Source of the DNA: an uncultured Gammaproteobacteria bacterium
GTDB lineage: Bacteria > Patescibacteriota > Microgenomatia > Daviesbacterales > UBA10151
Reading direction: 5' to 3'
Length of the DNA: 64,000 nucleotides
Assembly: GCA_964390595.1 (NCBI GenBank)
Contig: CAYMIA010000005.1
Location: forward strand, 3,586 to 67,585
The notes under the pieces are model-generated. The model was given only the letters and a program-made list of their open reading frames with translations. It searched no databases and was not told the origin of the DNA. This document shows, one piece after another, positions 16-36,462 of this stretch. Both the position numbers and the translations under genes were made by a program. The stretch's first letter is position 1. Each line of letters starts with the position of its first letter.

Positions 16-1542
16 GTGGGAGAGTTTTTTAGGTGGTTACTTTATGCGCCACTCTTTGCAATCTTTTTGGCAGGGCTAGTGGCTTTTTGGGGAAATTTCC
101 AAAAGGTTAACCCAGCTGGTCCTGGTTCTAATCCAATTCCTCTCTCGGGTATTAATTATCCATGTGAGCCCAATTCTAAAACTAATGTGAATGGTTCGAG
201 TAGTTATTATCCGACTTCGATCAATATTTTAGTTGGTGGGCCTTGTCAGACTTTGGCTTTTGACAATGATCCACTGAAAAATAACAGTGTTAATATCCCT
301 GAATCATTTTTGCAATATGTGGTGGCTTTAGTGATGCTTTGGGGGGTGATTTTAGTGCCATGGATACTACTTAAAATCTTTTTGGATTATTTATATAGCT
401 TTTCTTGGGGTGATAATAGTATAGCAAAGTATCTTGTTAATTCAGCATCCCCACTTAGAAACCGCTATTTTGGGGGAAGAGAGCCAGTTCCAGGGCCGCC
501 CGTCCGCCCGGGATCTCCGGGAGTTCCACCGAGTGGGACAACTGGGCGGGCGATGGAGTTGCCTTACTTTAAAGAGAGTCCAATGCAGGTTGCAGAGAAA
601 AACGAACAGTCGGCTAATGTCTTTAATTCAGCTAATGTGGCGACCAGTGAAAGTGTCCGGGAGATGAACCGGGCCACTAATTTGGCGAATCAAACCAGTC
701 AGATCCAAAATCAAACTCAATCATCAATTTCTTCAATTGCTAATATGCCTACATTTAACAGCGCGGCAACTGATTCCCAGTCAACTAGTGAAATACTGAA
801 CTTAACTAATTTAAGTATCCCAACGATTCAAGATATTGCTAAATATGAGGCAGCAATTATTTCAACAGAAACTAACAGTCAGGTGGAGATAAACAACCAA
901 GCTCAGGTAAGTAAGATCTCTGAATCGCTAAACCGGTTGGCTGGGACAAGTCCAATTACCACTCCTTCTGAACGGGAGATTTATACCAAGGTTAGGGAGC
1001 GGATTGAAAGAGAGTCAGTTAAAGGCAATAAGATTGCATCAACTATTTTGAATGCAGCAGTGCCGCAAGCGGTTAAAGCGGCGATTCCAGACAAGAACAC
1101 CGTTCAGCAAGTTAATTTGGATGATTATGAAGAGGTTAAGCGGACTTGGTTACAAAACTACCGCAAACTAGATGCTCCGGCGGCCCCAGATGGTTCGCCA
1201 CGCAATAGAAAAGAGTGGTTGAAGCAAGAGGTGGCTCAAATTAGTCAAGTGACAAGTTTGATGGCATCAAATGAACCGGCAAAACAGGAGCAAGCTAAGG
1301 CAATGGTTTCCAAGATTTTACCATTTTTGCTTTTGGGAGGATTCTCTCAAAGCGAGATTATTGCTTACTTGAAAGCCAAGCAAGAAGCTGCTAAGACTGT
1401 TCTGGCAGATATGCCAGCAGACGGTGAGTCAGAAGAAGATTTGGTTTCGATCGAAAAGAAAAAACAAGAGGCTCCTAAAACTATGACCACAGAAGCAGAA
1501 ATACCTGAGGATAAAAAACCAGAACCTTTGAAAAACAGTTAA
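16..1542 (+). CDS. hypothetical membrane protein with N-terminal TM helices, a Pro-rich patch, a Q/N/S/T-rich low-complexity middle and a Lys/Glu-rich C-terminus; 5' end may extend beyond the window (GTG start, frame open to nt 1)
   Basis: long ORF; hydrophobic segments WLLYAPLFAIFLAGLVAFWG and VVALVMLWGVILVPWILLKIFL; no catalytic motif recognised. Confidence 0.45.
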   Translation: MGEFFRWLLYAPLFAIFLAGLVAFWGNFQKVNPAGPGSNPIPLSGINYPCEPNSKTNVNGSSSYYPTSINILVGGPCQTLAFDNDPLKNNSVNIPESFLQYVVALVMLWGVILVPWILLKIFLDYLYSFSWGDNSIAKYLVNSASPLRNRYFGGREPVPGPPVRPGSPGVPPSGTTGRAMELPYFKESPMQVAEKNEQSANVFNSANVATSESVREMNRATNLANQTSQIQNQTQSSISSIANMPTFNSAATDSQSTSEILNLTNLSIPTIQDIAKYEAAIISTETNSQVEINNQAQVSKISESLNRLAGTSPITTPSEREIYTKVRERIERESVKGNKIASTILNAAVPQAVKAAIPDKNTVQQVNLDDYEEVKRTWLQNYRKLDAPAAPDGSPRNRKEWLKQEVAQISQVTSLMASNEPAKQEQAKAMVSKILPFLLLGGFSQSEIIAYLKAKQEAAKTVLADMPADGESEEDLVSIEKKKQEAPKTMTTEAEIPEDKKPEPLKNS

Positions 1543-2362: not shown

Positions 2363-2719
2363 TTAAAATTCTTGGGAGACTAGTTTGGTGGTTTTAAAAT
2401 ATTTTTTGGTAAAATCGAGAGCTTTTTGATTGGAGAATTTTTTACAGGTATAAAGAACGCAGGAGAGAAATTTTTCATTAGTCCAAACATAAAGGGCAAT
2501 TCCTGAATCAATTAAGGGGACAAAGGCATCAAATCCTTGGTTTTCCTCTTTTCCCTCTCCAGATGGTGAATGAATAATTGGTTCTCCATAAGTTTTCAGA
2601 TCTAAATTGATCGCTAATTCTAGAAGGTATTTTTTAACGGTTTCCGCAGTTACCTCTATAGAAAAATTGGCTTCTATTAAAAGTCTTTGTCTAATAATTT
2701 GCGGGGCTATGTCTTCCAT
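2363..2719 (-). CDS. S-adenosylmethionine decarboxylase (SpeH/class 1b AdoMetDC)-like small protein
   Basis: 118 aa; segment DSGIALYVWTNEKF...VLYTCKKF aligns by eye with AdoMetDC proenzyme core ES|HISIHTWPE...VDVFTCG; the Ser of the cleavage site is conserved but the processing His appears replaced by Tyr. Confidence 0.4.
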   Translation of the reverse strand: MEDIAPQIIRQRLLIEANFSIEVTAETVKKYLLELAINLDLKTYGEPIIHSPSGEGKEENQGFDAFVPLIDSGIALYVWTNEKFLSCVLYTCKKFSNQKALDFTKKYFKTTKLVSQEF

Positions 2720-2744
2720 AAGAATATTTTAACATAAGAGTGTG

Positions 2745-2838
2745 TATTGCTCGAGCATAAGAGTGCAGGGGTGAGATAAAAATCCTACGCCGGGTGTGGG
2801 ATTTTTTGTAGGCGTACAAACTATTGCTCGAGCATAAA
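2745..2838 (-). promoter_or_regulatory. pair of 16-nt near-palindromic sites TATTGCTCGAGCATAA (2745-2760 and 2823-2838), candidate operator pair in the promoter region of the AdoMetDC-like gene
   Basis: exact 16-nt direct repeat containing the perfect 10-bp palindrome TGCTCGAGCA, 78 bp apart, 26 nt upstream of the start codon at 2719. Confidence 0.3.
2783..2817 (-). terminator. possible intrinsic terminator for the UbiA-family gene (stem CCTAC/GTAGG or TACGCC/GGCGTA, followed on the minus strand by ATTTTTAT)
   Basis: hairpin plus T-run read on the minus strand; the loop is large (19 nt), so the call is weak. Confidence 0.25.
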
Positions 2839-2920
2839 TGTGTACGGTTAAAGGATTAGAATTTAACACCAGGTGAGAGTCAGGTTAGAAGTTCAGTTTT
2901 TTAATGGATGATTTTGGTGG

Positions 2921-3862
2921 TTAGGCGCCTAAGTAATAAATGATTCCAATGACTACAACCAACCAGAGCATGACGGTGATGAGGAGGGGTTGGTCGGTGA
3001 GTAGAACTCGCTCTGGAGATTCGCCTTCCTTTTTTTCATAGATAATGTAGAGGTAGCGCATGACTCCATATATGACAATGGGGATGGTGATCATTAGAAA
3101 TTTTGAATAGTTGGTGAAAGGTAAATTAAAGTTATCTAAGAAGCTGACTAGCCGGTGTCTGGCAACTATTGGAGGTTGCAAAAAAGTGAATAGGGCAAAA
3201 GCTAGCCAAGTTGAATTAGCGAACATAGCGGTTAAAATATCCAATAAATTTTCAGGGTAGTGAAGCAAAGTTTCCCGGTGTTTGCTGGCCGCAGTGGCAT
3301 TGTGGAGCAAGGTTAGTTCGGAGCGGCGCTTACCTATTGCTAAGAAAAGAGCAAAAGAGATAACTGTCAGTAGAAACCAAATATTTAAATGGGCATCAAT
3401 TGCCCAAACTCCAGCATAAACCCGTAGCACAAACCCAGCAGCAATCGCCATCACATCAAGTAAAATGACTGATTTAAGATAGGAAGAATAAAGTAGTTGG
3501 AGAGCCAGGTAACCAAAAACAGCTAGGAAAAATGAGGGCGAAATTTTAAAAGCAAAAAAGAGTGAACCAAAGATTAAAACAACTACTAAAACTAAGGCAA
3601 AAGGAATTGAGATAAGCCCAGCAGCGATAGGGCGCTTGCTTTTGAAGGGATGAAGGCGGTCTCTTTTAATATCAAAGATATCATTTAAGACATAGGTGGC
3701 AGATGAAGCAGCGCAAAAAATTAGAAAGGCAAATAGAATAGTGATTAAACTTTCGGAATTATTTAGTTTGCCAGAAAAAAGCAGCCCAGCAAAGAGGGCA
3801 AAGTTTTTTATCCATTGTCTTGGTCTGACCTCCCGAAGAAGGGCCCAAAGGAATTTAACCAT
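2921..3862 (-). CDS. UbiA-family prenyltransferase, decaprenyl-phosphate phosphoribosyltransferase-like
   Basis: RPRQWIKNFALFAGLLF N-terminal motif, YVLNDIFDIKRDRLHP (NDxxDxxxD) and KSKRPIAAG motifs, 8-9 TM helices. Confidence 0.7.
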   Translation of the reverse strand: MVKFLWALLREVRPRQWIKNFALFAGLLFSGKLNNSESLITILFAFLIFCAASSATYVLNDIFDIKRDRLHPFKSKRPIAAGLISIPFALVLVVVLIFGSLFFAFKISPSFFLAVFGYLALQLLYSSYLKSVILLDVMAIAAGFVLRVYAGVWAIDAHLNIWFLLTVISFALFLAIGKRRSELTLLHNATAASKHRETLLHYPENLLDILTAMFANSTWLAFALFTFLQPPIVARHRLVSFLDNFNLPFTNYSKFLMITIPIVIYGVMRYLYIIYEKKEGESPERVLLTDQPLLITVMLWLVVVIGIIYYLGA

Positions 3863-4920
3863 AAGATAAATCCGATAAATAATATTGAAACTCCCAAAAT
3901 TGCAAAGAACTTTGAGGTAGTATCAATAAATAACGAGACTAAGCCTAAGATAGCAGAGATAGCAATATAAAACAAGGCGATCCGCTCTTGAGACCAACCT
4001 TTACGGTCAAGTAGAAGATGATGGAGATGGCCCCGGTCGCCCCAAACTGGAGATTTGCCATGAGCGATTCTTCTCACAATAGTATAGATAAAATCGAGCG
4101 CAGGTATGGCGAGTACCAGCAACATAGTGGCAACTTTAGCACCAGATAGAATTGACAGAATTGCTAACATAAAAGCCGAGATTGTAGATCCGGAAAAACC
4201 GGGCAGAATTTTACTAGGATGCCAATTAAAAAGTAAAAAAGCCAGAGAGGTACCGGCGGTAATAAATCCTAATTTAGCAACAGTTAGTTGGTGAATGTCT
4301 CCCTGGAAAAAAAGTTTGGTAGAAAGGATGGCCATAGTTAGAGAGGCGATGAAGGTAATTCCTGGCATTTGCCCGTCAACTCCCTTGCTCCAATTGATGA
4401 CTTGGGTGAGAGCAATGATTAAAAAGAAAGCAAAAATATCAGCGATGGGAATTATTTGATGCGGGCCAAAAAATTGAAAAGGGATGGTGATTTGATCCAG
4501 TCTAATATATGAGCCAACCTGCAATGGATTAGCGATAAACGAAACGCCGATGCCTGATGCAACTGCACAACCAGCTGCTAAAAATAACAGAGAGAGTCTA
4601 ATATAAGGGTTAAAATTTCTAAATTTATCATCGAGAAGTCCAATGATTAACAGAACGGTGATTCCAAGGAGAGTCCCAATTAAATATTTCTTGATTGGTA
4701 AAAGGAGTAAGGTAGTAATGACAATTCCTAGGTAAATAGCAAGTCCACCCGCGCGGGGGATAACTCTTTGTTGAATATGGGCGGGGTGGGGTCTCTTTTT
4801 TGGGTCATCAACAAGAGAATATTTTTTGGCAATTTTAATGGTAATGGGAATGGCAGCACAGGTAACTAAAAAAGCGATTAGAAATGGAAAGACGTCGATC
4901 ATTTTAAATGAATATTCCAA
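3808..4920 (-). CDS. glycosyltransferase family 4 polyprenyl-phosphate sugar-1-phosphate transferase (MraY/WecA family)
   Basis: IIGLLDDKF motif, polytopic membrane protein, HHLLL... C-terminal region typical of MraY/WecA; the 3' end overlaps the UbiA-family ORF by ~55 nt. Confidence 0.65.
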   Translation of the reverse strand: MEYSFKMIDVFPFLIAFLVTCAAIPITIKIAKKYSLVDDPKKRPHPAHIQQRVIPRAGGLAIYLGIVITTLLLLPIKKYLIGTLLGITVLLIIGLLDDKFRNFNPYIRLSLLFLAAGCAVASGIGVSFIANPLQVGSYIRLDQITIPFQFFGPHQIIPIADIFAFFLIIALTQVINWSKGVDGQMPGITFIASLTMAILSTKLFFQGDIHQLTVAKLGFITAGTSLAFLLFNWHPSKILPGFSGSTISAFMLAILSILSGAKVATMLLVLAIPALDFIYTIVRRIAHGKSPVWGDRGHLHHLLLDRKGWSQERIALFYIAISAILGLVSLFIDTTSKFFAILGVSILFIGFILWLNSFGPFFGRSDQDNG

Positions 4921-5260
4921 TTATTTTTAAGGCAGTAATCAGTATCAATAAAGCGATTGAGGTAGTGGCAATGCTGATGACCCGTTTGAGGATTAATTGA
5001 GAGGTATGAAGTTGCCAGGTGATGATCAAATTAATCAGGGCGATTAGTAAAATAAGTGAAGGTAAAATAATAAATTGGGGTTTGTTAACCAGCTGGCTAT
5101 CGCCCCAGTTGAGTGAGTAAAATAAGGGAAGTCTGGAAGGGAGTTGATTGTAGGCTAATGCAAACCGGATGACTATGGTAATGCTACAAAGGAGTGTTAA
5201 TAGATTGGCATAAAATTCAATTTTGTCTTGTTCGTGATAAAGGCTAATTAATTTGTCCAT
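4904..5260 (-). CDS. small integral membrane protein (3-4 TM)
   Basis: ORF with hydrophobic helices; start overlaps upstream gene; no motif. Confidence 0.35.
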   Translation of the reverse strand: MDKLISLYHEQDKIEFYANLLTLLCSITIVIRFALAYNQLPSRLPLFYSLNWGDSQLVNKPQFIILPSLILLIALINLIITWQLHTSQLILKRVISIATTSIALLILITALKIIGIFI

Positions 5261-7035
5261 TAGGTTGAGATGCGGGCTTTGTTGGTGGTCCGGTACTTGA
5301 TGTGTTTGCCAAACATGAGAGTAGTTTGAGCATCAATTGCTGGAATAGTTGAAATAGTTACAACTACAATTGGAACGAGTAAAAATTGAATATAGGACCA
5401 GAGTCTTTGGAGGAGTCCCCAGTTTTTTGGCCTGGGTGGAGAGGTTTTTTCATGAACATAGATGGTGACAAAAAGTCCAATGAAAGCGGCTGTCATAATA
5501 TAGGAGGAGATAATGGGTAGATTAACTGCTAGGACAGATTCTTTGTAGTGGGGGTTGATTAAGGGAATTAGCATACCGGCAAAAGTGACAAAAAGCGCTA
5601 GGGTGCCCCATTTTAAATTAGCCCAAAGAGTAAAAGCTAACCGGTCGGTTTTGGCCCAAAAATCGATATCAGTCCGCCTGAAATATTGTTTAAAAATATA
5701 AGGGAGGTGTTCAACCCCATAAGCCCAGCGTTTGAGTTGGAGATATTGATTTTGAAAAGTTTTAGCTAAGGTAACATCCAAAACCGTGTCAGCACTAATT
5801 GGCATAAAGTGTGGAATGACCTTGTAGTCACCTTTAAAATGAAAAAAGGCTTTCCAGTAAAACCCAGAATCATCGTTGACTTTATCTGGAATCCAAAGTC
5901 CGATGTCGAGTAGAGATTGCATATTGATTGAGAGAGAAGAGTAGTTCATATATTTATCTGAACCAACCATTTCAGCCAATTGCCAGAAGCTAGTACCAGT
6001 GGCAATGAGTCTCATGGGAGTTGGAGCTTGCCAATAGTTGTTGTGGTATAAGAAGACACCAGTATAACTTCTTTTGTCTCTTAAATTTTCTGGGGTAGAC
6101 AGATATTTGTGAAGCGCGCCGCTTAAAAACTCCGGGTGAATAACAAAATCAGCATCTAGAGTCGTGGCTAAAACTTGTTTGGGGTCTATTTTATTTTTCT
6201 TAAGATATTCCTGAGCTCTGTTAATCATCCAATTACGGTTTGTACCAGGGCCAGCGATTTCGCCATGAAGACCCTCTGGGTGATAAGTAATGATTACCCC
6301 GCCGATCTTGTCATTCAAAGAATTTAGATACTTAATAGTTTCACTGTGAAGTTCTTTGGGGTTGACCCGTTCTTCAAATCCTACTACTAAAAATATTTTG
6401 TTTTTAGGAAAGTTAGAGTTAACAACTGCATCGAAAGCCGGGCCGAGTACCTCTAAACTTTCCTTGTAGACTGGCAGGGCCAAAAGCTGATAATAATCTT
6501 GCCATTCTAGAGGAAAGTCTTTTTTTAGATTAATGAGCCAGGGTTGTTTTTTAGCCCACTCCATTTTTTTGTAACCGACAATAATCAAGACAGAAATCCG
6601 GATGGCGCTAATTAACCAATAGACATCAGCGATGATAATTAAATAGGCGACTGTTAGAGGTAGGGTAAAGGAGAGCCAGAAGGGGGAGGTGAGAGCGAGC
6701 CAGGTCATGGCACCAGGTAAAATTTCAATAATCCGTGTTATCAGATTTTCATGTTTTTTTAGAAATTGTTTCTCCGCCCGTTCATGGATGATATATTGTT
6801 GGGAGAGAAGGTGGTGACCGACTAATCCGCAGCCAGCTCCAAGTAAAAAAGTCGCTATAAAAACATCTAGAGGTGTGCTCACGATAAGGTGGCCAAAAAA
6901 ACCCATTAAAAAGCCAATCAATATTAGGCTTAGCCCAAAAATACTATGAAGAGGTCTTTTAAAAATCCGGTTGATCAGCTCTCCAAGGTAAAAAAAGGAT
7001 AGTAAACCAATCAAAAAGCTGGCAATTAAACGCAT
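5260..7035 (-). CDS. large polytopic membrane protein with central soluble domain; possible membrane glycosyltransferase of a cell-envelope glycan cluster
   Basis: TM helices at both ends, ~350-aa globular middle; adjacent and translationally coupled to the GT4 and UbiA genes. Confidence 0.35.
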   Translation of the reverse strand: MRLIASFLIGLLSFFYLGELINRIFKRPLHSIFGLSLILIGFLMGFFGHLIVSTPLDVFIATFLLGAGCGLVGHHLLSQQYIIHERAEKQFLKKHENLITRIIEILPGAMTWLALTSPFWLSFTLPLTVAYLIIIADVYWLISAIRISVLIIVGYKKMEWAKKQPWLINLKKDFPLEWQDYYQLLALPVYKESLEVLGPAFDAVVNSNFPKNKIFLVVGFEERVNPKELHSETIKYLNSLNDKIGGVIITYHPEGLHGEIAGPGTNRNWMINRAQEYLKKNKIDPKQVLATTLDADFVIHPEFLSGALHKYLSTPENLRDKRSYTGVFLYHNNYWQAPTPMRLIATGTSFWQLAEMVGSDKYMNYSSLSINMQSLLDIGLWIPDKVNDDSGFYWKAFFHFKGDYKVIPHFMPISADTVLDVTLAKTFQNQYLQLKRWAYGVEHLPYIFKQYFRRTDIDFWAKTDRLAFTLWANLKWGTLALFVTFAGMLIPLINPHYKESVLAVNLPIISSYIMTAAFIGLFVTIYVHEKTSPPRPKNWGLLQRLWSYIQFLLVPIVVVTISTIPAIDAQTTLMFGKHIKYRTTNKARIST

Positions 7036-7095
7036 GGTTACTGTTAAGTTTACGGTCTTTACCTACAGAAATCAAATGAATTATAGTACAGGATA

Positions 7096-23993: not shown

Positions 23994-26021
23994 TTAAAAG
24001 TTGAGCCAGTCGTCTTCGTCGACTTGGCTGACGTCGTCACTGAAGGTGGGTTTGTCTTCGAGACGGTCAGAGTATTTACTATTTGAATCTAGCAGATTTT
24101 CGGGTATCGATGCAATAAAGCGGGAGACTAAATTATTAGAGCGGGTGCCGAAATAAAGCCGGGAGCGGGTGTAGGTTAAGTAGAGGCGGTCTTTAGCCCT
24201 GGTGATGCCGACATAAGCGAGGCGGCGTTCTTCTTCCATCTCATTTGGGTTTAGCATTGATCTTGAATGGGGGAAGAGCCCTTCTTCCATTCCAACTAAA
24301 AAGACCACTGGAAACTCCAGGCCTTTGGAGGCATGGATAGTCATTAGGGTGACAGCTTCTTGTGACTGTTCGGATTTGCCATCTGGCATGTTGTCGCCTT
24401 GGACCAAAGAGACATTTTCTAAAAATGAAACTAAATCAGGAAACTCTTCAGCAACTGAGCGGAGCTCTTTAACGTTTTCAACGCGGTTTTTACCGGCATC
24501 GGTACCATCATCTAAATAAGCGAGGTAACCGGTTTTGATCAAGACGTTGTCTAATAGTTCTAGGGTAGTATAATCACTGGTTTTGCCACTGACCTCCCCA
24601 ATGTATTCAAAAAATTTTTGGGCTCTCCCCTTGCCGATTTTTTCAACTCTTTTTTTGGCGATTGAATCGCTGGGATTTTGGAGCAATTTTAAATAAGAGA
24701 GGACGTCTTTGATCTCTTTTCGGGCATAAAATTGAACGCCACCAAAAAGTTTGTATGGCACTCCAGATTTGAGGAAAGCTTCCTCGAGACTTCTGGATTG
24801 AGCATTGGTTCGGTAGAGGATAGCAAAGTCTGAAAGGGTAAGTTTGGTAGACTCGGGGGTCCTGTCGGCTAACAGCCCCATCCGACCTCCTCGTTCCGTT
24901 AGCACTCCACTGCGGGGGCTCGATGGGGCGCCCCGTTTGCCGTCACCCTCCTCGCCTAACCTAAGTTTTTCTGCGTCACCCAAAATTGAACCACTTGAGG
25001 CCATTCTCAATATTTGATCGATTAGGAAAAGAGCTTCTTCGACCTCATTTCGGGCTTGGAAGATGGTGATTTTGGGGCCCTCTTTTTTATCGGTCCAGAG
25101 TTTTAAAATTGGATGGCTAGTATTTTCGGAGATAACAGCTTGGGCGGCATCAAGGATAACTTGAGTTGAACGGTAGTTTTGTTCCAAATTAAAAACTTTA
25201 GTTTCTGGGTAGTCTTTTTCAAAGTTGACGATGTTCCGGAAGTCGGCGCCACGGAAGCCATAGATGGCCTGGGAGGCGTCTCCAACCACGCAGATGTTCC
25301 GGTAGCGTTTAGCTAGGAGTTTAATGAGTTGATATTGGGCAGCGTTAGTATCTTGATACTCATCAACTAAAATATATTTAAATTGTTGTTGGTAGCGGGA
25401 GAGCACTGGAGGTTGTGATTGAAAGAGACGGATTGTTTCCATAAGCAAGTCATCGAAGTCGAGCGCCCAGTTTTGGCGCAGAATTTTTTGATATTCAATA
25501 TAAACTTTGGCGACAGTTTCTTGAAAATAACCTCTCGCGTACTGCGGATATTCCATTTCAGAGATGACCTCATTTTTGGCTCCAGAGATAGTATTTCGAA
25601 CGGCATTGGGATTAATTTTTTGAGTAGCTAAATTTAATTTAGCCATGGCCTGCTTGATAGCATCGAGAGCATCGCTTTCGTCATAAATTGAAAAGCCGGG
25701 GTTGAGGCCAGCGTTGTGGGCTTCTTTGCGTAGGATTTTAGCGCAGATGGAGTGAAAGGTGCCCATTAGGGGTTGGTTCGAGCTTTTACCTAGGAGTTGT
25801 AAAATCCGCTCGCGCATCTCCCCTGCCGCTTTGTTGGTAAAAGTAACAACTAAAATATTATCTGGGGAGATTTGATGCTGGGAAATTAAATAGGCGACCC
25901 GGTAAGTTAAAACTCTAGTTTTGCCAGAGCCAGCACCAGCTAAAACTAAAACTGGACCTTCAGTGGCTTTAGCAGCTTCTTGTTGAATGGGGTTTAAATC
26001 CTCTAAATTAACACTGGGCAT
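23994..26021 (-). CDS. pcrA: ATP-dependent DNA helicase UvrD/PcrA, carrying a 41-codon GC-rich in-frame insertion
   Basis: motif I LAGAGSGKTRVLTYRVAYL, motif II VDEYQDTN, motif IV YRTNAQSR, C-terminal LAYVGITRAKDRLYLT; insertion RLGEEGDGKRGAPSSPRSGVLTERGGRMGLLADRTPEST precedes motif IV. Confidence 0.85.
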   Translation of the reverse strand: MPSVNLEDLNPIQQEAAKATEGPVLVLAGAGSGKTRVLTYRVAYLISQHQISPDNILVVTFTNKAAGEMRERILQLLGKSSNQPLMGTFHSICAKILRKEAHNAGLNPGFSIYDESDALDAIKQAMAKLNLATQKINPNAVRNTISGAKNEVISEMEYPQYARGYFQETVAKVYIEYQKILRQNWALDFDDLLMETIRLFQSQPPVLSRYQQQFKYILVDEYQDTNAAQYQLIKLLAKRYRNICVVGDASQAIYGFRGADFRNIVNFEKDYPETKVFNLEQNYRSTQVILDAAQAVISENTSHPILKLWTDKKEGPKITIFQARNEVEEALFLIDQILRMASSGSILGDAEKLRLGEEGDGKRGAPSSPRSGVLTERGGRMGLLADRTPESTKLTLSDFAILYRTNAQSRSLEEAFLKSGVPYKLFGGVQFYARKEIKDVLSYLKLLQNPSDSIAKKRVEKIGKGRAQKFFEYIGEVSGKTSDYTTLELLDNVLIKTGYLAYLDDGTDAGKNRVENVKELRSVAEEFPDLVSFLENVSLVQGDNMPDGKSEQSQEAVTLMTIHASKGLEFPVVFLVGMEEGLFPHSRSMLNPNEMEEERRLAYVGITRAKDRLYLTYTRSRLYFGTRSNNLVSRFIASIPENLLDSNSKYSDRLEDKPTFSDDVSQVDEDDWLNF
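24846..24961 (-). mobile_element. GC-rich hairpin-rich insertion element copy B1 inside pcrA/uvrD, flanked by 7-bp direct repeats TAAGTTT (24839-24845 and 24962-24968)
   Basis: 116 nt of ~70% GC in a ~38% GC gene; direct repeats 123 nt (41 codons) apart; removing it restores collinearity with PcrA; related to intergenic copy 35357-35452. Confidence 0.5.
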
Positions 26022-34308: not shown

Positions 34309-34947
34309 ATGCTCATAAAACTGGCCTCACTGCTATTTCTAGGTCTGGGAGTTTTTATTTTGGTCCAAGTGGCGACTCCTTTTTTGGCGTTCAAAGTTTG
34401 GGAGGTAACTGCTTATAGTCAGGACTCTTTGCTGGTTGATCCGGTGTCCACAAAACCGGTGGATGGAGTTTTTGTTCAAGATTTGGGCAACTTTCCAGCG
34501 ATAGTTTCTGCTAATAACCGGGATGGGGGAACCCCCTATCATGAATTTGAATTGACTATTCCGACAATTAAATTGCAAGATATAAAGGTGGTAGTTGATA
34601 GCAATGATTTTGAACATAATTTAGCGCATTTGCCTGGATCAGCGTTGCCAGGTGAAAAAGGGAATGTGTTTGTAACTGGGCATTCTTCCTTAGCCCAGTT
34701 TTTTAAACCAGATAACTTTAAAGCGATTTTTGCCAATTTACCCAATATTAAAAAAGGAGATGAGATATTTGTTACTGCGGGAGGGCAATCTTTTGTATAT
34801 GTGGTTGAGGGGATGAGAATTGTTGATCCAAAAGAGATTAGTGTAGTAAATCCACCTAATTCAACAGGGAGGTATTTAAGTTTGATGACTTGTGTCCCAC
34901 CTGGATTTAATACCAAGCGTTTGGTAGTATTAGCTAGATTAAAATAG
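34309..34947 (+). CDS. sortase-family transpeptidase
   Basis: N-terminal TM, LPGEKGNVFVTGHS (catalytic His) and YLSLMTCVPPG (TLxTC catalytic Cys) motifs. Confidence 0.65.
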   Translation: MLIKLASLLFLGLGVFILVQVATPFLAFKVWEVTAYSQDSLLVDPVSTKPVDGVFVQDLGNFPAIVSANNRDGGTPYHEFELTIPTIKLQDIKVVVDSNDFEHNLAHLPGSALPGEKGNVFVTGHSSLAQFFKPDNFKAIFANLPNIKKGDEIFVTAGGQSFVYVVEGMRIVDPKEISVVNPPNSTGRYLSLMTCVPPGFNTKRLVVLARLK

Positions 34948-35339
34948 TGAAATATTTAGGCATAGATTATGGGCGTAGAAAAATTGGTCTGTCAATTTCT
35001 GAAGGCCAGTTGGCTTCCGTTTTTAAAGTTTTAACAGTTGGTGGGGTGGCTGATGCTGTTTCTAAAATTATTCAAGTGATTCACAAGGAAGATATTAACC
35101 GGGTGATTGTGGGCGTTCCTGAAGGGGGAACTGGAAAGATGGTCAAGTCTTTTGTTGAGAATCTGAAAAATGAATTATCCGAGACTGATGTGGTAGTTTT
35201 AGAAGCTGATGAGACGCTTTCTTCAAAAAAGGCCTTGGATTTGATGATTCAAGTTGGGGCTTCTAAAAAAGACCGGAAAAAAGAAGACGCCTTTTCAGCA
35301 GCGATTATTTTACAAAACTTTTTAGATTCTTTAGAATAG
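34947..35339 (+). CDS. ruvX: Holliday-junction resolvase-like RuvX/YqgF
   Basis: MKYLGIDYGRRKIGLSIS start, RNase H-like; conserved ruvX-mltG adjacency. Confidence 0.7.
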   Translation: MKYLGIDYGRRKIGLSISEGQLASVFKVLTVGGVADAVSKIIQVIHKEDINRVIVGVPEGGTGKMVKSFVENLKNELSETDVVVLEADETLSSKKALDLMIQVGASKKDRKKEDAFSAAIILQNFLDSLE

Positions 35340-35356
35340 TATAGGTAGTTTACTTA

Positions 35357-35452
35357 GGGTCCTGCCAGCTTGGTTTCCCGTCGGATGTCCTCACTATGCT
35401 ATCGCTCCGTTGCGGGCATGCGCCGGGAGCCCTCCTCGCTGTCACCCTGCGT
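35357..35452 (+). repeat. GC-rich hairpin-rich element copy B2 (intergenic, between ruvX and mltG), homologous to the insertion inside pcrA
   Basis: ~96 nt of ~65% GC; shares GGGTCCTG(C/T)C(A/G)GCT..., ...CTCCGTT(A/G)..., CCCTCCTCGC...GTCACCCT blocks with 24852-24957. Confidence 0.5.
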
Positions 35453-35475
35453 AAACTTTTATTTAGACATAGAAA

Positions 35476-36462
35476 ATGAAAAAAAACTTTATTAGAAATT
35501 GGTTGATATTAATTGGAGTGGTGGTGGTGGTGGGAGTGGGGGTGAAAGTTTATTGGGGATATTTAAATTCAGCGGTTAATTCGAGTGAACCTTCAACTAA
35601 AGCGTTTGTGATTCAAAAAGGGGAGTCAGTAACGAGTATTGCTGAACACTTAAAACAAGAAGGGTTGATCCGTTCGCCGCTGGCTTTTAAAGTGGCTTTA
35701 AAATTATCGGGAGTGGGGGTGAAAATTGAGGCAGGAGATTTTAAGTTATCGCCAAGTATGTCAATTAAAGATTTGATGAGTGCATTGCAAAATGGAGCAA
35801 CAGATAAATGGGTGACGCTGCTTGAGGGATGGAGGCTGGAGCAAGTAGCTGATGAGTTAAATAGACAATTGACAATTGACAAGGGACAATTTCTGAAGGT
35901 GGCCCGTGAGGGGTATATGTTTCCTGACACTTATCTTTTTAATAAAGAAGCTAGCGCAGAGACAATCGCCTCAACTTTAGAAAATACTTTTGACCAAAGG
36001 TATGATGAGGAGTTAAAAGCTAAGGTACGCGCAAGAGGTCTGACTGAGCAACAAGGGGTGATATTAGCGTCAATTGTGGAGAGAGAAGCGAGGTCTGATG
36101 AGGTTAGGACTAAAGTAGCAAGTATTTTGTTAAAGAGGTTTAAAATTGGGATGGCTTTAAATGCTGATGCGACTGTTCAATATGCTAAAGATTCGCAAGC
36201 TTTAAAAATGGGAAACTTGGCAAAATTTTGGCAGCCGGTTACAACTGATGATTATAAAGAGATTGTTTCCCCCTACAATACTTATTTAAATGCGGGGCTA
36301 CCACCTACTCCAATTTGTAACCCAGGTTTGTCATCAATAAAGGCGGTTGCGAGTGCCGATCCATCAACACCCTATCTATTTTATTATCATGATAGCCAAG
36401 GAAACTCATATTATGCTAAGACTTTGGAAGAGCATAATCAAAATGTCAGGAGTCATCCGTGA
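35476..36462 (+). CDS. mltG: endolytic murein transglycosylase MltG (YceG-like)
   Basis: N-terminal TM, YceG-like domain (ASIVEREA, catalytic E context), C-terminal GLPPTPICNPG. Confidence 0.7.
   Translation: MKKNFIRNWLILIGVVVVVGVGVKVYWGYLNSAVNSSEPSTKAFVIQKGESVTSIAEHLKQEGLIRSPLAFKVALKLSGVGVKIEAGDFKLSPSMSIKDLMSALQNGATDKWVTLLEGWRLEQVADELNRQLTIDKGQFLKVAREGYMFPDTYLFNKEASAETIASTLENTFDQRYDEELKAKVRARGLTEQQGVILASIVEREARSDEVRTKVASILLKRFKIGMALNADATVQYAKDSQALKMGNLAKFWQPVTTDDYKEIVSPYNTYLNAGLPPTPICNPGLSSIKAVASADPSTPYLFYYHDSQGNSYYAKTLEEHNQNVRSHP

Follow-up and report, generated by a model that had tools for sequence, protein, structure and literature searches.

The window analysed here, a 64-kb stretch of contig CAYMIA010000005.1, contains on its minus strand a pcrA/uvrD helicase gene that carries a GC-rich block of 116 nucleotides, and this block is, in our view, probably a small mobile DNA element. 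The encoded protein is readily recognised (E 4.5e-167 against PcrA of known structure, PDB entry 1pjr), and its homologues are UvrD-helicase proteins of Candidatus Daviesbacteria; among 5.8 billion protein clusters, with its own database record set aside, the nearest relative is about 71% identical. The gene is encoded on the C-rich, lagging strand. Mean GC content of the window is 40.7% (standard deviation 5.9% for 100-nt windows), the richest 100 nt of the block reach 0.69, and values of 0.60 or more occur in only four stretches of the 64 kb. An earlier sequence-only reading had described a hairpin-rich segment of about 70% GC bounded by a direct repeat. The measured value is 67.2%, the two copies of TAAGTTT (AAACTTA on the coding strand) are 123 nt apart from start to start on the plus strand, which corresponds to 41 codons, and the palindrome GGGGCGCCCC is present at positions 24925-24934, all as described.

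The pcrA open reading frame (ORF) translates as ...GDAEKL, followed by RLGEEGDGKRGAPSSPRSGVLTERGGRMGLLADRTPESTKL and then TLSDFAILYRTNAQSR, with the extra residues RLGEEGDG...TPESTKL located directly before the YRTNAQSR of helicase motif IV. Deletion of 41 residues yields GDAEKLTLSDF..., restoring GDAEKLTLSDFAILYRTNAQSR as had been proposed. The shortened protein is collinear with PcrA, but the further claim that it aligns without a gap does not hold, as the loop remains about 7 residues longer; against the solved structure 1pjr, residues 341-395 stand in for PcrA residues 344-350. In an AlphaFold2 model run with 42 orthologues, residues 344-391, between the helix 326-342 and the motif IV strand 399-403, have predicted local distance difference test scores below 50. 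The insert is thus predicted to form a disordered surface loop of domain 2A, which would fit its tolerance as a surface peptide, as the sequence-only reading had supposed.

On the coding strand, the block starts with GGTTAGGCGAGGAGGGTGAC and ends with CAGGACCCCCGAGTCTACC. Its termini, GGTTAGGCGAGG... and ...CCCGAGTCTACC, pair with each other, GGT.AGGC with GUCU.ACC in the minimum-energy fold. When the block was folded on its own, as had been suggested, the outcome was mixed: RNA of the minus strand folds at -54 kcal/mol (z -2.4 relative to shuffled sequences; plus strand z -0.7), but the DNA strands, with z-scores of -0.7 and +0.7, fold no better than shuffles. Because of this, the claim of a structure rests on covariation, and the strong evidence against chance comes from the family to which the block belongs rather than from its single-sequence fold. 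A covariance model built from other copies matches the pcrA copy over the full length of the model (Table 1). Beyond the core, an arm of the GGTTAG / CTACC type adds six more nucleotides on each side and lengthens the hairpin; these extra nucleotides are partly common to a copy at another locus (L062), and the 7-bp repeat abuts the ends of the arm.

Table 1. Coordinates of the pcrA insertion, its surroundings and the second copy (positions in the 64-kb window).
Feature	Position	Strand	Basis and remarks
Host gene pcrA/uvrD, 675 aa	23994..26021	-	ORF and translation
Full element copy, 116 nt	24846..24961	-	Sequence
Direct repeat TAAGTTT (coding strand AAACTTA), downstream copy with respect to pcrA	24839..24845	+	Sequence; candidate target-site duplication
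Direct repeat TAAGTTT, upstream copy with respect to pcrA	24962..24968	+	Sequence
Covariance-model match: helices P1-P5, internal loop GA / RCAGG, motifs CCCGCAG and CGAGGA	24849..24956	-	cmsearch, 76 bits, E 9.4e-18
12-nt stub GGGTGACGCAGA, same as the 5' start of the family core	24970..24981	-	Sequence; codes part of 'LGDAE'
Second, diverged copy (65% identical to the pcrA copy)	35349..35455	-	nhmmer, E 9e-4; cmsearch, 82.7 bits, E 1.5e-19

The block is not a singleton, an outcome on which the sequence-only reading had made its idea of a mobile element depend: many copies were found, with their flanking repeats recorded, in other genomes and once more in the same window. This second copy is located between ruvX (34947-35339, plus strand) and mltG (35476-36462, plus strand), antisense to both, and belongs to a different subfamily. 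When species-representative genomes were scanned with a single degenerate pattern, 100 stretches matched, compared with about 0.5 chance matches expected (our own estimate, not the result of a tool). The covariance model was applied to 98 of these; it recognised all but two at E<=1e-3 and added ten further copies. The two that it missed (L060 and L103) are probably chance matches to the pattern. Carriers include Daviesbacteria, Levybacteria, Blackburnbacteria, Nomurabacteria, Saccharimonadia and other Patescibacteria (the candidate phyla radiation, CPR), and the family is also present in at least one Omnitrophota genome, a metagenome-assembled genome (MAG) of 69% GC with at least 25 near-identical copies. 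The copies are found in unrelated genes and in intergenic DNA, share a core with covarying helices and can be near-identical within a genome.

A few carrier MAGs bear other taxonomic labels yet have CPR-like content. Several of about 40% GC, among them L007/L014 (contig CAYTPB010000048.1), L012 and L044, are labelled 'uncultured Gammaproteobacteria', 'Acidiferrales' or 'Lysobacterales', and CAYTPB010000048.1 carries a Daviesbacteria-like pcrA. These labels look wrong, or the bins contaminated. Rfam 15 gave no match at the element region (E<=10), in the whole window (gathering threshold) or for the copies in eight other loci (E<=0.1); scans of the window for transfer RNA and transfer-messenger RNA were negative, and the viral contigs searched contained no copy. 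We found no description of this hairpin family in the full-text literature, in a search whose coverage lacks most subscription-journal papers, and the family is apparently undescribed so far.

The family element is 95-120 nt long and has no coding capacity of its own. From 90 distinct copies, five helices (P1-P5) are proposed, in which 82.3% of the cells at proposed pairs are paired, compared with 35-41% in slid pairings. The covariation score is 0.388, a value that none of 500 shuffles reached; slid pairings score 0.05-0.09. RNAalifold, applied to 11 copies, gave 24 pairs, 15 of them with compensatory changes. Covariation is seen, for instance, in the 7-bp helix P2, the arms of which may be wholly different between copies yet complementary (GGCAAAG/CTTTGCC, AGTTCCG/CGGAACT and GGAGGAC/GTCCTCC are examples). 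In the Daviesbacteria-type subfamily, the boundaries are G(C/T)GAG|GGGTGRC...CAGGACC|CCGA(G/A)C, with flanking pairs that covary and lengthen P1, and in many copies the outer part of P1 contains a tandem GA/AG mismatch. At least three kinds of arm, or none, surround the same core. G·U pairs exceed A·C pairs (124 versus 61 overall), and the pair 43-90 is G·U in 55 of the 90 copies. Written as DNA, G·T exceeds A·C in the inner helices, which favours folding of the GGGTGRC strand, while the two are about equal in the outer helices.

Between P1 and P2 there is an invariant asymmetric loop, GA / RCAGG (2+5 nt), which in the window corresponds approximately to positions 24859-24863 and 24943-24944 of the minus strand. 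A kink-turn was considered for this loop; the dimensions fit, but position 2b is G rather than A, and the resemblance is recorded as an observation only.

The PcrA orthologues allow the element to be distinguished from a protein loop. At the insert site, most of 120 orthologues have a loop of 8-13 residues (overall range 5-60); this agrees with the insertion proposed by the sequence-only reading, apart from the gapless alignment already mentioned. Close orthologues mostly lack the segment, instead of carrying one of the same length and ordinary composition as expected for a lineage-specific loop. About 15 of the 120 have longer inserts with recurring, frame-shifted motifs (KRGAPSS, EEGSR, RQDPE and RRDT..GP). 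DNA was retrieved for seven of these, and a nucleotide alignment of eight pcrA orthologues revealed one conserved element, (G)GGGTGAC ... CCCGCAG ... CGAGGA ... CGACGGG ... GRCAGGACCC, read in differing frames by different lineages, with indels that bring the frame back. As nucleotides are kept while the peptide frame shifts, selection or ancestry acts on a DNA or RNA element and not on a protein loop. When PcrA proteins were placed in a neighbour-joining tree after masking of the insert, the insert carriers were scattered: the sister of the window protein is an orthologue without insert, the sister proteins P0015 and P0018 have elements of different subfamilies, and decayed, AT-rich remnants are seen in P0046, P0032 and P0021.

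Further observations were made at individual pcrA loci. The Daviesbacteria gene at L001 (P0009, 681 residues) has two in-frame copies in different loops (2945-3050 and 3299-3398), and L005 has an intergenic copy besides that in pcrA. Directly upstream of the element-bearing Daviesbacteria pcrA of L003, an IS200-like Y1 transposase is encoded at 2596-3030 (PF01797, E 2.6e-34); the covariance model finds no element copies flanking this transposase gene.

Copies were counted as intragenic where they are spanned by an uninterrupted ORF of 150 residues or more that leaves at least 30 residues on each side. On this definition, 38 of 109 copies are located in a long ORF in the sense orientation and 33 in the antisense orientation, with 38 intergenic or unclear, so that the intragenic total is 71. 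Among copies in AT-rich genomes, about two thirds are intragenic. The element is thus found inside ORFs in either orientation, without breaking them. Host genes were named from translated ORFs and from clustering of neighbouring ORFs. A cluster of class-I aminoacyl-tRNA synthetases accounts for 16 loci and includes ValS, with one site common to two genomes, and LeuS, with several sites; other hosts are TopA, PolA, PcrA, MurB, the CCA-adding enzyme, a P-type ATPase, transketolase and PMT-type glycosyltransferases. Clustering of the ORFs near the copies returned host housekeeping families of this sort only, with no family of transposases. About 90% of copies have open antisense frames, and the TGA of GGGTGAC shuts one sense frame; over six frames, stop depletion is modest (a mean of 4.3 open frames, compared with 3.5 in shuffles).

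Some sites are shared. The same CarB loop is occupied in three distant genomes (L012, L072 and L078) and the ValS site just mentioned in two (L022 and L043), with differing frames in both cases; such sites may be hot spots for insertion, or else the insertions are very old and have been maintained.

The orientation of the copies follows replication. GC skew was calculated for copies in AT-rich loci from up to 4 kb of flank per side, with the element excluded. Of 86 copies, 77 are oriented such that GGGTGRC…CAGGACCC is read from the lagging strand, the one that is locally C-rich (77:9, binomial p ~1e-14); where the flank skew is above 0.08 in size, this applies to 51 of 52 (51:1). The ratio of C-rich to G-rich strand is 29:6 for copies sense in an ORF, 24:1 for those antisense in an ORF and 24:2 for intergenic ones; the polarity is present in each context, and is therefore tied to replication rather than to transcription. 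Six further copies in AT-rich loci were recognised by the covariance model alone, and all six are on the strand of their neighbour. The window itself has a GC skew of +0.21 on its plus strand, and the skew at third codon positions (GC3 skew), in plus-strand letters, is +0.42 in plus-strand genes and +0.43 in minus-strand genes, hence independent of gene direction. Plus-strand genes account for 65% of the coding DNA of the window; both element copies are on the minus strand, and the element's own skew is opposite to that of its surroundings. The leading strand is usually G-rich, which would place the complement, GGGTCCTGYC...GYCACCC, on the template for lagging-strand synthesis. Replication-orientation bias is known for IS200/IS605 elements, where such polarity is the hallmark of 'peel and paste' transposition (PMC6006769; PMC5027513), and many DDE insertion-sequence families are likewise biased with respect to replication (PMC3971601). 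The bias being known for both, the polarity points to a coupling to replication and does not name the enzyme.

Several observations argue for mobility. Copies at different loci of the same genome are often 93-98% identical, and almost 100% identical in the Omnitrophota MAG, while host orthologues are far more diverged between carrier genomes (PcrA 59-71% protein identity). The nearest relative of the pcrA copy, the L062 copy (89%), is in a different gene of another genome. Flanking direct repeats of 7 bp or longer, looked for within 30 nt, accompany 11% of the copies, compared with 4.3% of control flank pairings. Clear duplications are found in Omnitrophota subfamily 2, of 8 bp at L011, 7 bp at L020 and 9 bp at L094; the Omnitrophota arms measure 15-19 nt. 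The 7-bp target duplication proposed for pcrA is therefore plausible, having parallels of 7-9 bp in another subfamily, although most copies have no clear duplication.

At L094, an Omnitrophota subfamily-2 element is adjacent to a possible source of its transposase. The minus-strand order is CCCCGGCCG, the element with arms GATCGTGTCTCAATTTGGC and their inverted copy, CCCCGGCCG again, a 2.3-kb transposon and CCCCGGCC. The terminal repeats of the transposon, GGTAGTGTCCTAATTTGGC and GGTACTGTCCTAATTTGCC, match the arms of the element, and the duplication CCCCGGCC(G), of 8-9 bp, is present three times. These shared arms and the shared duplication indicate that Omnitrophota subfamily 2 is a miniature inverted-repeat transposable element (MITE) of the IS1 type. 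The transposon codes for a DDE_Tnp_IS1 protein (PF03400, E 3e-10), which has thousands of IS1-family homologues in environmental bacteria, and for a trypsin-like peptidase and Bflower passengers. It spans 4763-7061 of the locus, in tandem with the hairpin element, and has a low GC content (about 36-59%) within the 69% GC genome.

The stub just upstream of the insertion (Table 1) bears on the history of the pcrA loop. The same 12-mer opens the cores of L050, L101 and the Omnitrophota copies, and comparable 5' core stubs (GGGTGRC...) precede the full copies of L062, L099 and L005 at a distance of 10-33 nt. Judged by its sequence, the pcrA stub is probably a remnant of an older copy in the same loop, and stubs upstream of copies suggest repeated insertion at or near older copies; alternatively, they may be partial 5' duplications made during insertion.

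Taken together, the observations make it probable that the block is a mobile DNA element, non-autonomous and MITE-like, of a family that is about 95-120 nt in length, forms a GC-rich, imperfect, rod-like hairpin and is widespread in Patescibacteria. The selfish element envisaged by the sequence-only reading, similar to the Rickettsia palindromic elements (RPEs), is supported by the copies in unrelated genes and intergenic DNA, by their 93-98% identity and by the frame-shifted peptide. A small selfish element tolerated within genes is what we also propose, but 'inserts in-frame' is better worded as survival of only those insertions that are in frame and stop-free. The element would have entered the loop before motif IV at the DNA level, duplicating 7 bp (AAACTTA), and ...GGGTGACGCAGAAAAACTTACCCTTTCAGAC... 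is predicted for the empty site; the neighbouring 12-nt remnant of another copy makes it probable that the loop had been hit before. The insertion would have survived because element plus duplication make 123 nt, free of stops in the frame used, and is predicted to be translated as a 41-residue disordered loop that PcrA tolerates. Movement would be catalysed in trans, as suggested by the Omnitrophota subfamily arms, which equal the terminal inverted repeats of the adjacent IS1-family transposon, and by the 7-9-bp duplications; the window termini (GGTTAG...CTACC) and their 7-bp repeat are compatible with a DDE transposase of this kind. Both the covariation of the core and the strand polarity of about 50:1 suggest that single-stranded DNA, folded at the replication fork, is involved in insertion or retention.

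Several traits of a MITE are present: the pcrA copy, at 116 nt, is well within the limit of about 300 bp, and the elements are non-coding, have terminal inverted repeats and occur in several copies per genome (two in the 64-kb window). IS1 target duplications are usually 8-9 bp, close to the 7-9 bp seen here, and at L094 the arms and the duplication are those of the adjacent IS1-family transposon. A cognate autonomous insertion sequence with matching repeats is seen for Omnitrophota subfamily 2, but not at the window or the other CPR loci examined.

Several points weigh against a mobile element of this kind. Strictly abutting repeats of at least 5 bp flank only 5 of 107 copies, with 1.8 expected, and most Omnitrophota subfamily-1 copies have no target duplication. 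Searches with tblastn found no IS1- or IS200-type transposase in the window or near CPR copies, and the top 120 IS1-family homologues include no CPR names. Conservation in classical MITEs is highest at the ends; here it is the internal, structured core that is shared across phyla, with variable arms, a pattern that a simple origin by deletion of an insertion sequence does not explain. The same pcrA, carB and valS loops are filled in distant lineages, possibly as ancient, maintained insertions. Finally, movement is inferred and not observed. We hold only tentatively a further reading, in which the core is a structure-specific module acting as folded single-stranded DNA at the fork, either in a novel mode of insertion or retention or as a domesticated replication-polar signal, and has colonised permissive essential-gene loops across the CPR. 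In the first variant, it could target hairpins or earlier copies and be captured by different terminal arms, including IS1 ends.

That the insert is a lineage-specific protein loop, expanded in place by GC-rich drift or peptide selection and never mobile, is scarcely credible. The length of the loop before motif IV does vary from 5 to 60 residues among orthologues, and the insert is predicted to be disordered, but the same nucleotide core is found in unrelated genes, intergenic DNA and other phyla, its helices covary, and orthologues use different frames of the same nucleotides; the second copy in the window and the roughly 100 copies elsewhere in practice refute this explanation. A functional structured RNA, whether a small RNA or an mRNA structure that acts in cis, such as one that makes translation pause in large multidomain proteins, has more in its favour, namely the strong covariation, the surplus of G·U over A·C in the inner helices, the better-than-shuffled folding of minus-strand RNA and the enrichment of long multidomain enzymes among hosts. 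It is nevertheless quite unlikely, as sense and antisense copies are nearly equal in number (38:33), the copy between ruvX and mltG is antisense to both neighbours, orientation tracks GC skew and not transcription, G·T and A·C counts are about equal in the outer helices and Rfam has no match, while near-identical copies within genomes and target duplications indicate mobility at the DNA level.

An element derived from IS200/IS605, or similar to repetitive extragenic palindromic (REP) sequences and the REPINs built from them, and moved as a single strand at the fork by a Y1 HUH transposase (TnpA, or the REP-associated tyrosine transposase RAYT), seems unlikely. Such elements share the hairpin, their fork-linked mechanism would explain the strand-specific polarity (PMC6006769; PMC5027513), many copies here have no target duplication, and a Y1_Tnp gene is located directly upstream of the L003 pcrA. 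This last association is one of proximity in L003 only, as Y1 homologues are absent from all the other loci and the covariance model has no match beside the L003 tnpA. A conserved GT[AG]G 5' of the hairpin foot is also lacking: GTAG is limited to the two copies of the window and part of the pcrA copies, and flank logos show no conservation past G(C/T)GAG / CCGA(G/A)C. REPs, moreover, measure 20-40 nt, against about 100 nt and several internal loops in this element; some copies are flanked by clear duplications of 7-9 bp and end in terminal repeats of the IS1 type, and many DDE families share the orientation bias (PMC3971601). Identity with a REP/RAYT system was rejected because GTAG is not conserved and, L003 excepted, Y1 genes are not near the copies in the loci examined; nor is the element extragenic like a REP. 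A host-beneficial, replication-polar DNA motif, for instance a folded single-strand signal at the fork that has been kept since the early CPR radiation and is present in genes only incidentally, is very improbable. It would account for the polarity of about 50:1, for a sequence and structure core kept across phyla, for the recurrence of copies in the same pcrA, carB and valS loops of distant lineages and for the G-rich strand of the element being held on the strand that is C-rich, against a GC3 skew of 0.42. The patchy distribution among orthologues and the decayed AT-rich remnants oppose it, as do the near-identical copies within genomes and the turnover of subfamilies, which look selfish, the target duplications and IS1 link, and the Omnitrophota genome, where two of three multi-copy loci have copies on opposite strands.

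The closest parallel to the proposed MITE-like element is found in Rickettsia, where RPEs are palindromic repeats with many copies per genome, a large share of them in frame within unrelated, often essential genes and translated at positions compatible with the protein fold (PMC10969869). Both families consist of palindromic repeats of about 100-150 bp, are present in many copies, reside in frame within genes (here 71 of 109 copies, with the ORF kept) and are found in small, AT-rich genomes. The hosts here are Patescibacteria and Omnitrophota, not Rickettsia, so the likeness is one of analogy and not of membership. The present family differs in its GC-rich, covarying core conserved across phyla, its orientation by replication strand and, in one subfamily, its IS1-type ends and 7-9-bp duplications; to our knowledge, neither such a core, nor replication-strand orientation, nor IS1-type ends is an established RPE feature. 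The GC clusters of yeast mitochondria are also GC-rich, palindromic and mobile and can sit in frame within a coding gene (var1) of a very AT-rich genome, but they are organellar, much shorter (about 30-50 bp) and unrelated in sequence. An integron attC site, an imperfect palindrome with RYYYAAC and GTTRRRY at its two ends, was considered, since GTTAGGC fits GTTRRRY at one end of the window copy, and rejected, as the other end does not fit and other copies lack this motif and are dispersed rather than arrayed in cassettes. New here are the breadth of the family across the CPR, the covarying core shared between phyla, the concentration in essential genes, the replication-strand polarity and the IS1 link of one subfamily.

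Elsewhere in the window, a GC-rich block (up to 67% GC) at positions 436-598, within the ORF 16..1542, codes for the Pro/Gly-rich sequence GGREPVPGPPVRPGSPGVPPSGTTGRAME. The family covariance model does not match it, and its DNA folds with only a small advantage over shuffles (z -1.7); the block may be another kind of inserted element or simply a low-complexity linker.

For the tiny genomes of the CPR, these results would mean that a selfish, structured element persists inside essential genes as translated, disordered loops, like RPEs in Rickettsia. Inserts of 30-45 residues rich in Gly, Arg, Pro and Ser in aminoacyl-tRNA synthetases, PolA, TopA, CarB and PcrA are then element-derived, with a frame that varies by lineage, and masking them is advised in annotation and phylogenomics. 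With regard to protein evolution, the same permissive loops appear to have been struck repeatedly. For transposon biology, an IS1-family transposase is a candidate partner enzyme for one subfamily, and the covarying core shared across phyla, together with the strand polarity, points to a testable step that involves a folded strand.

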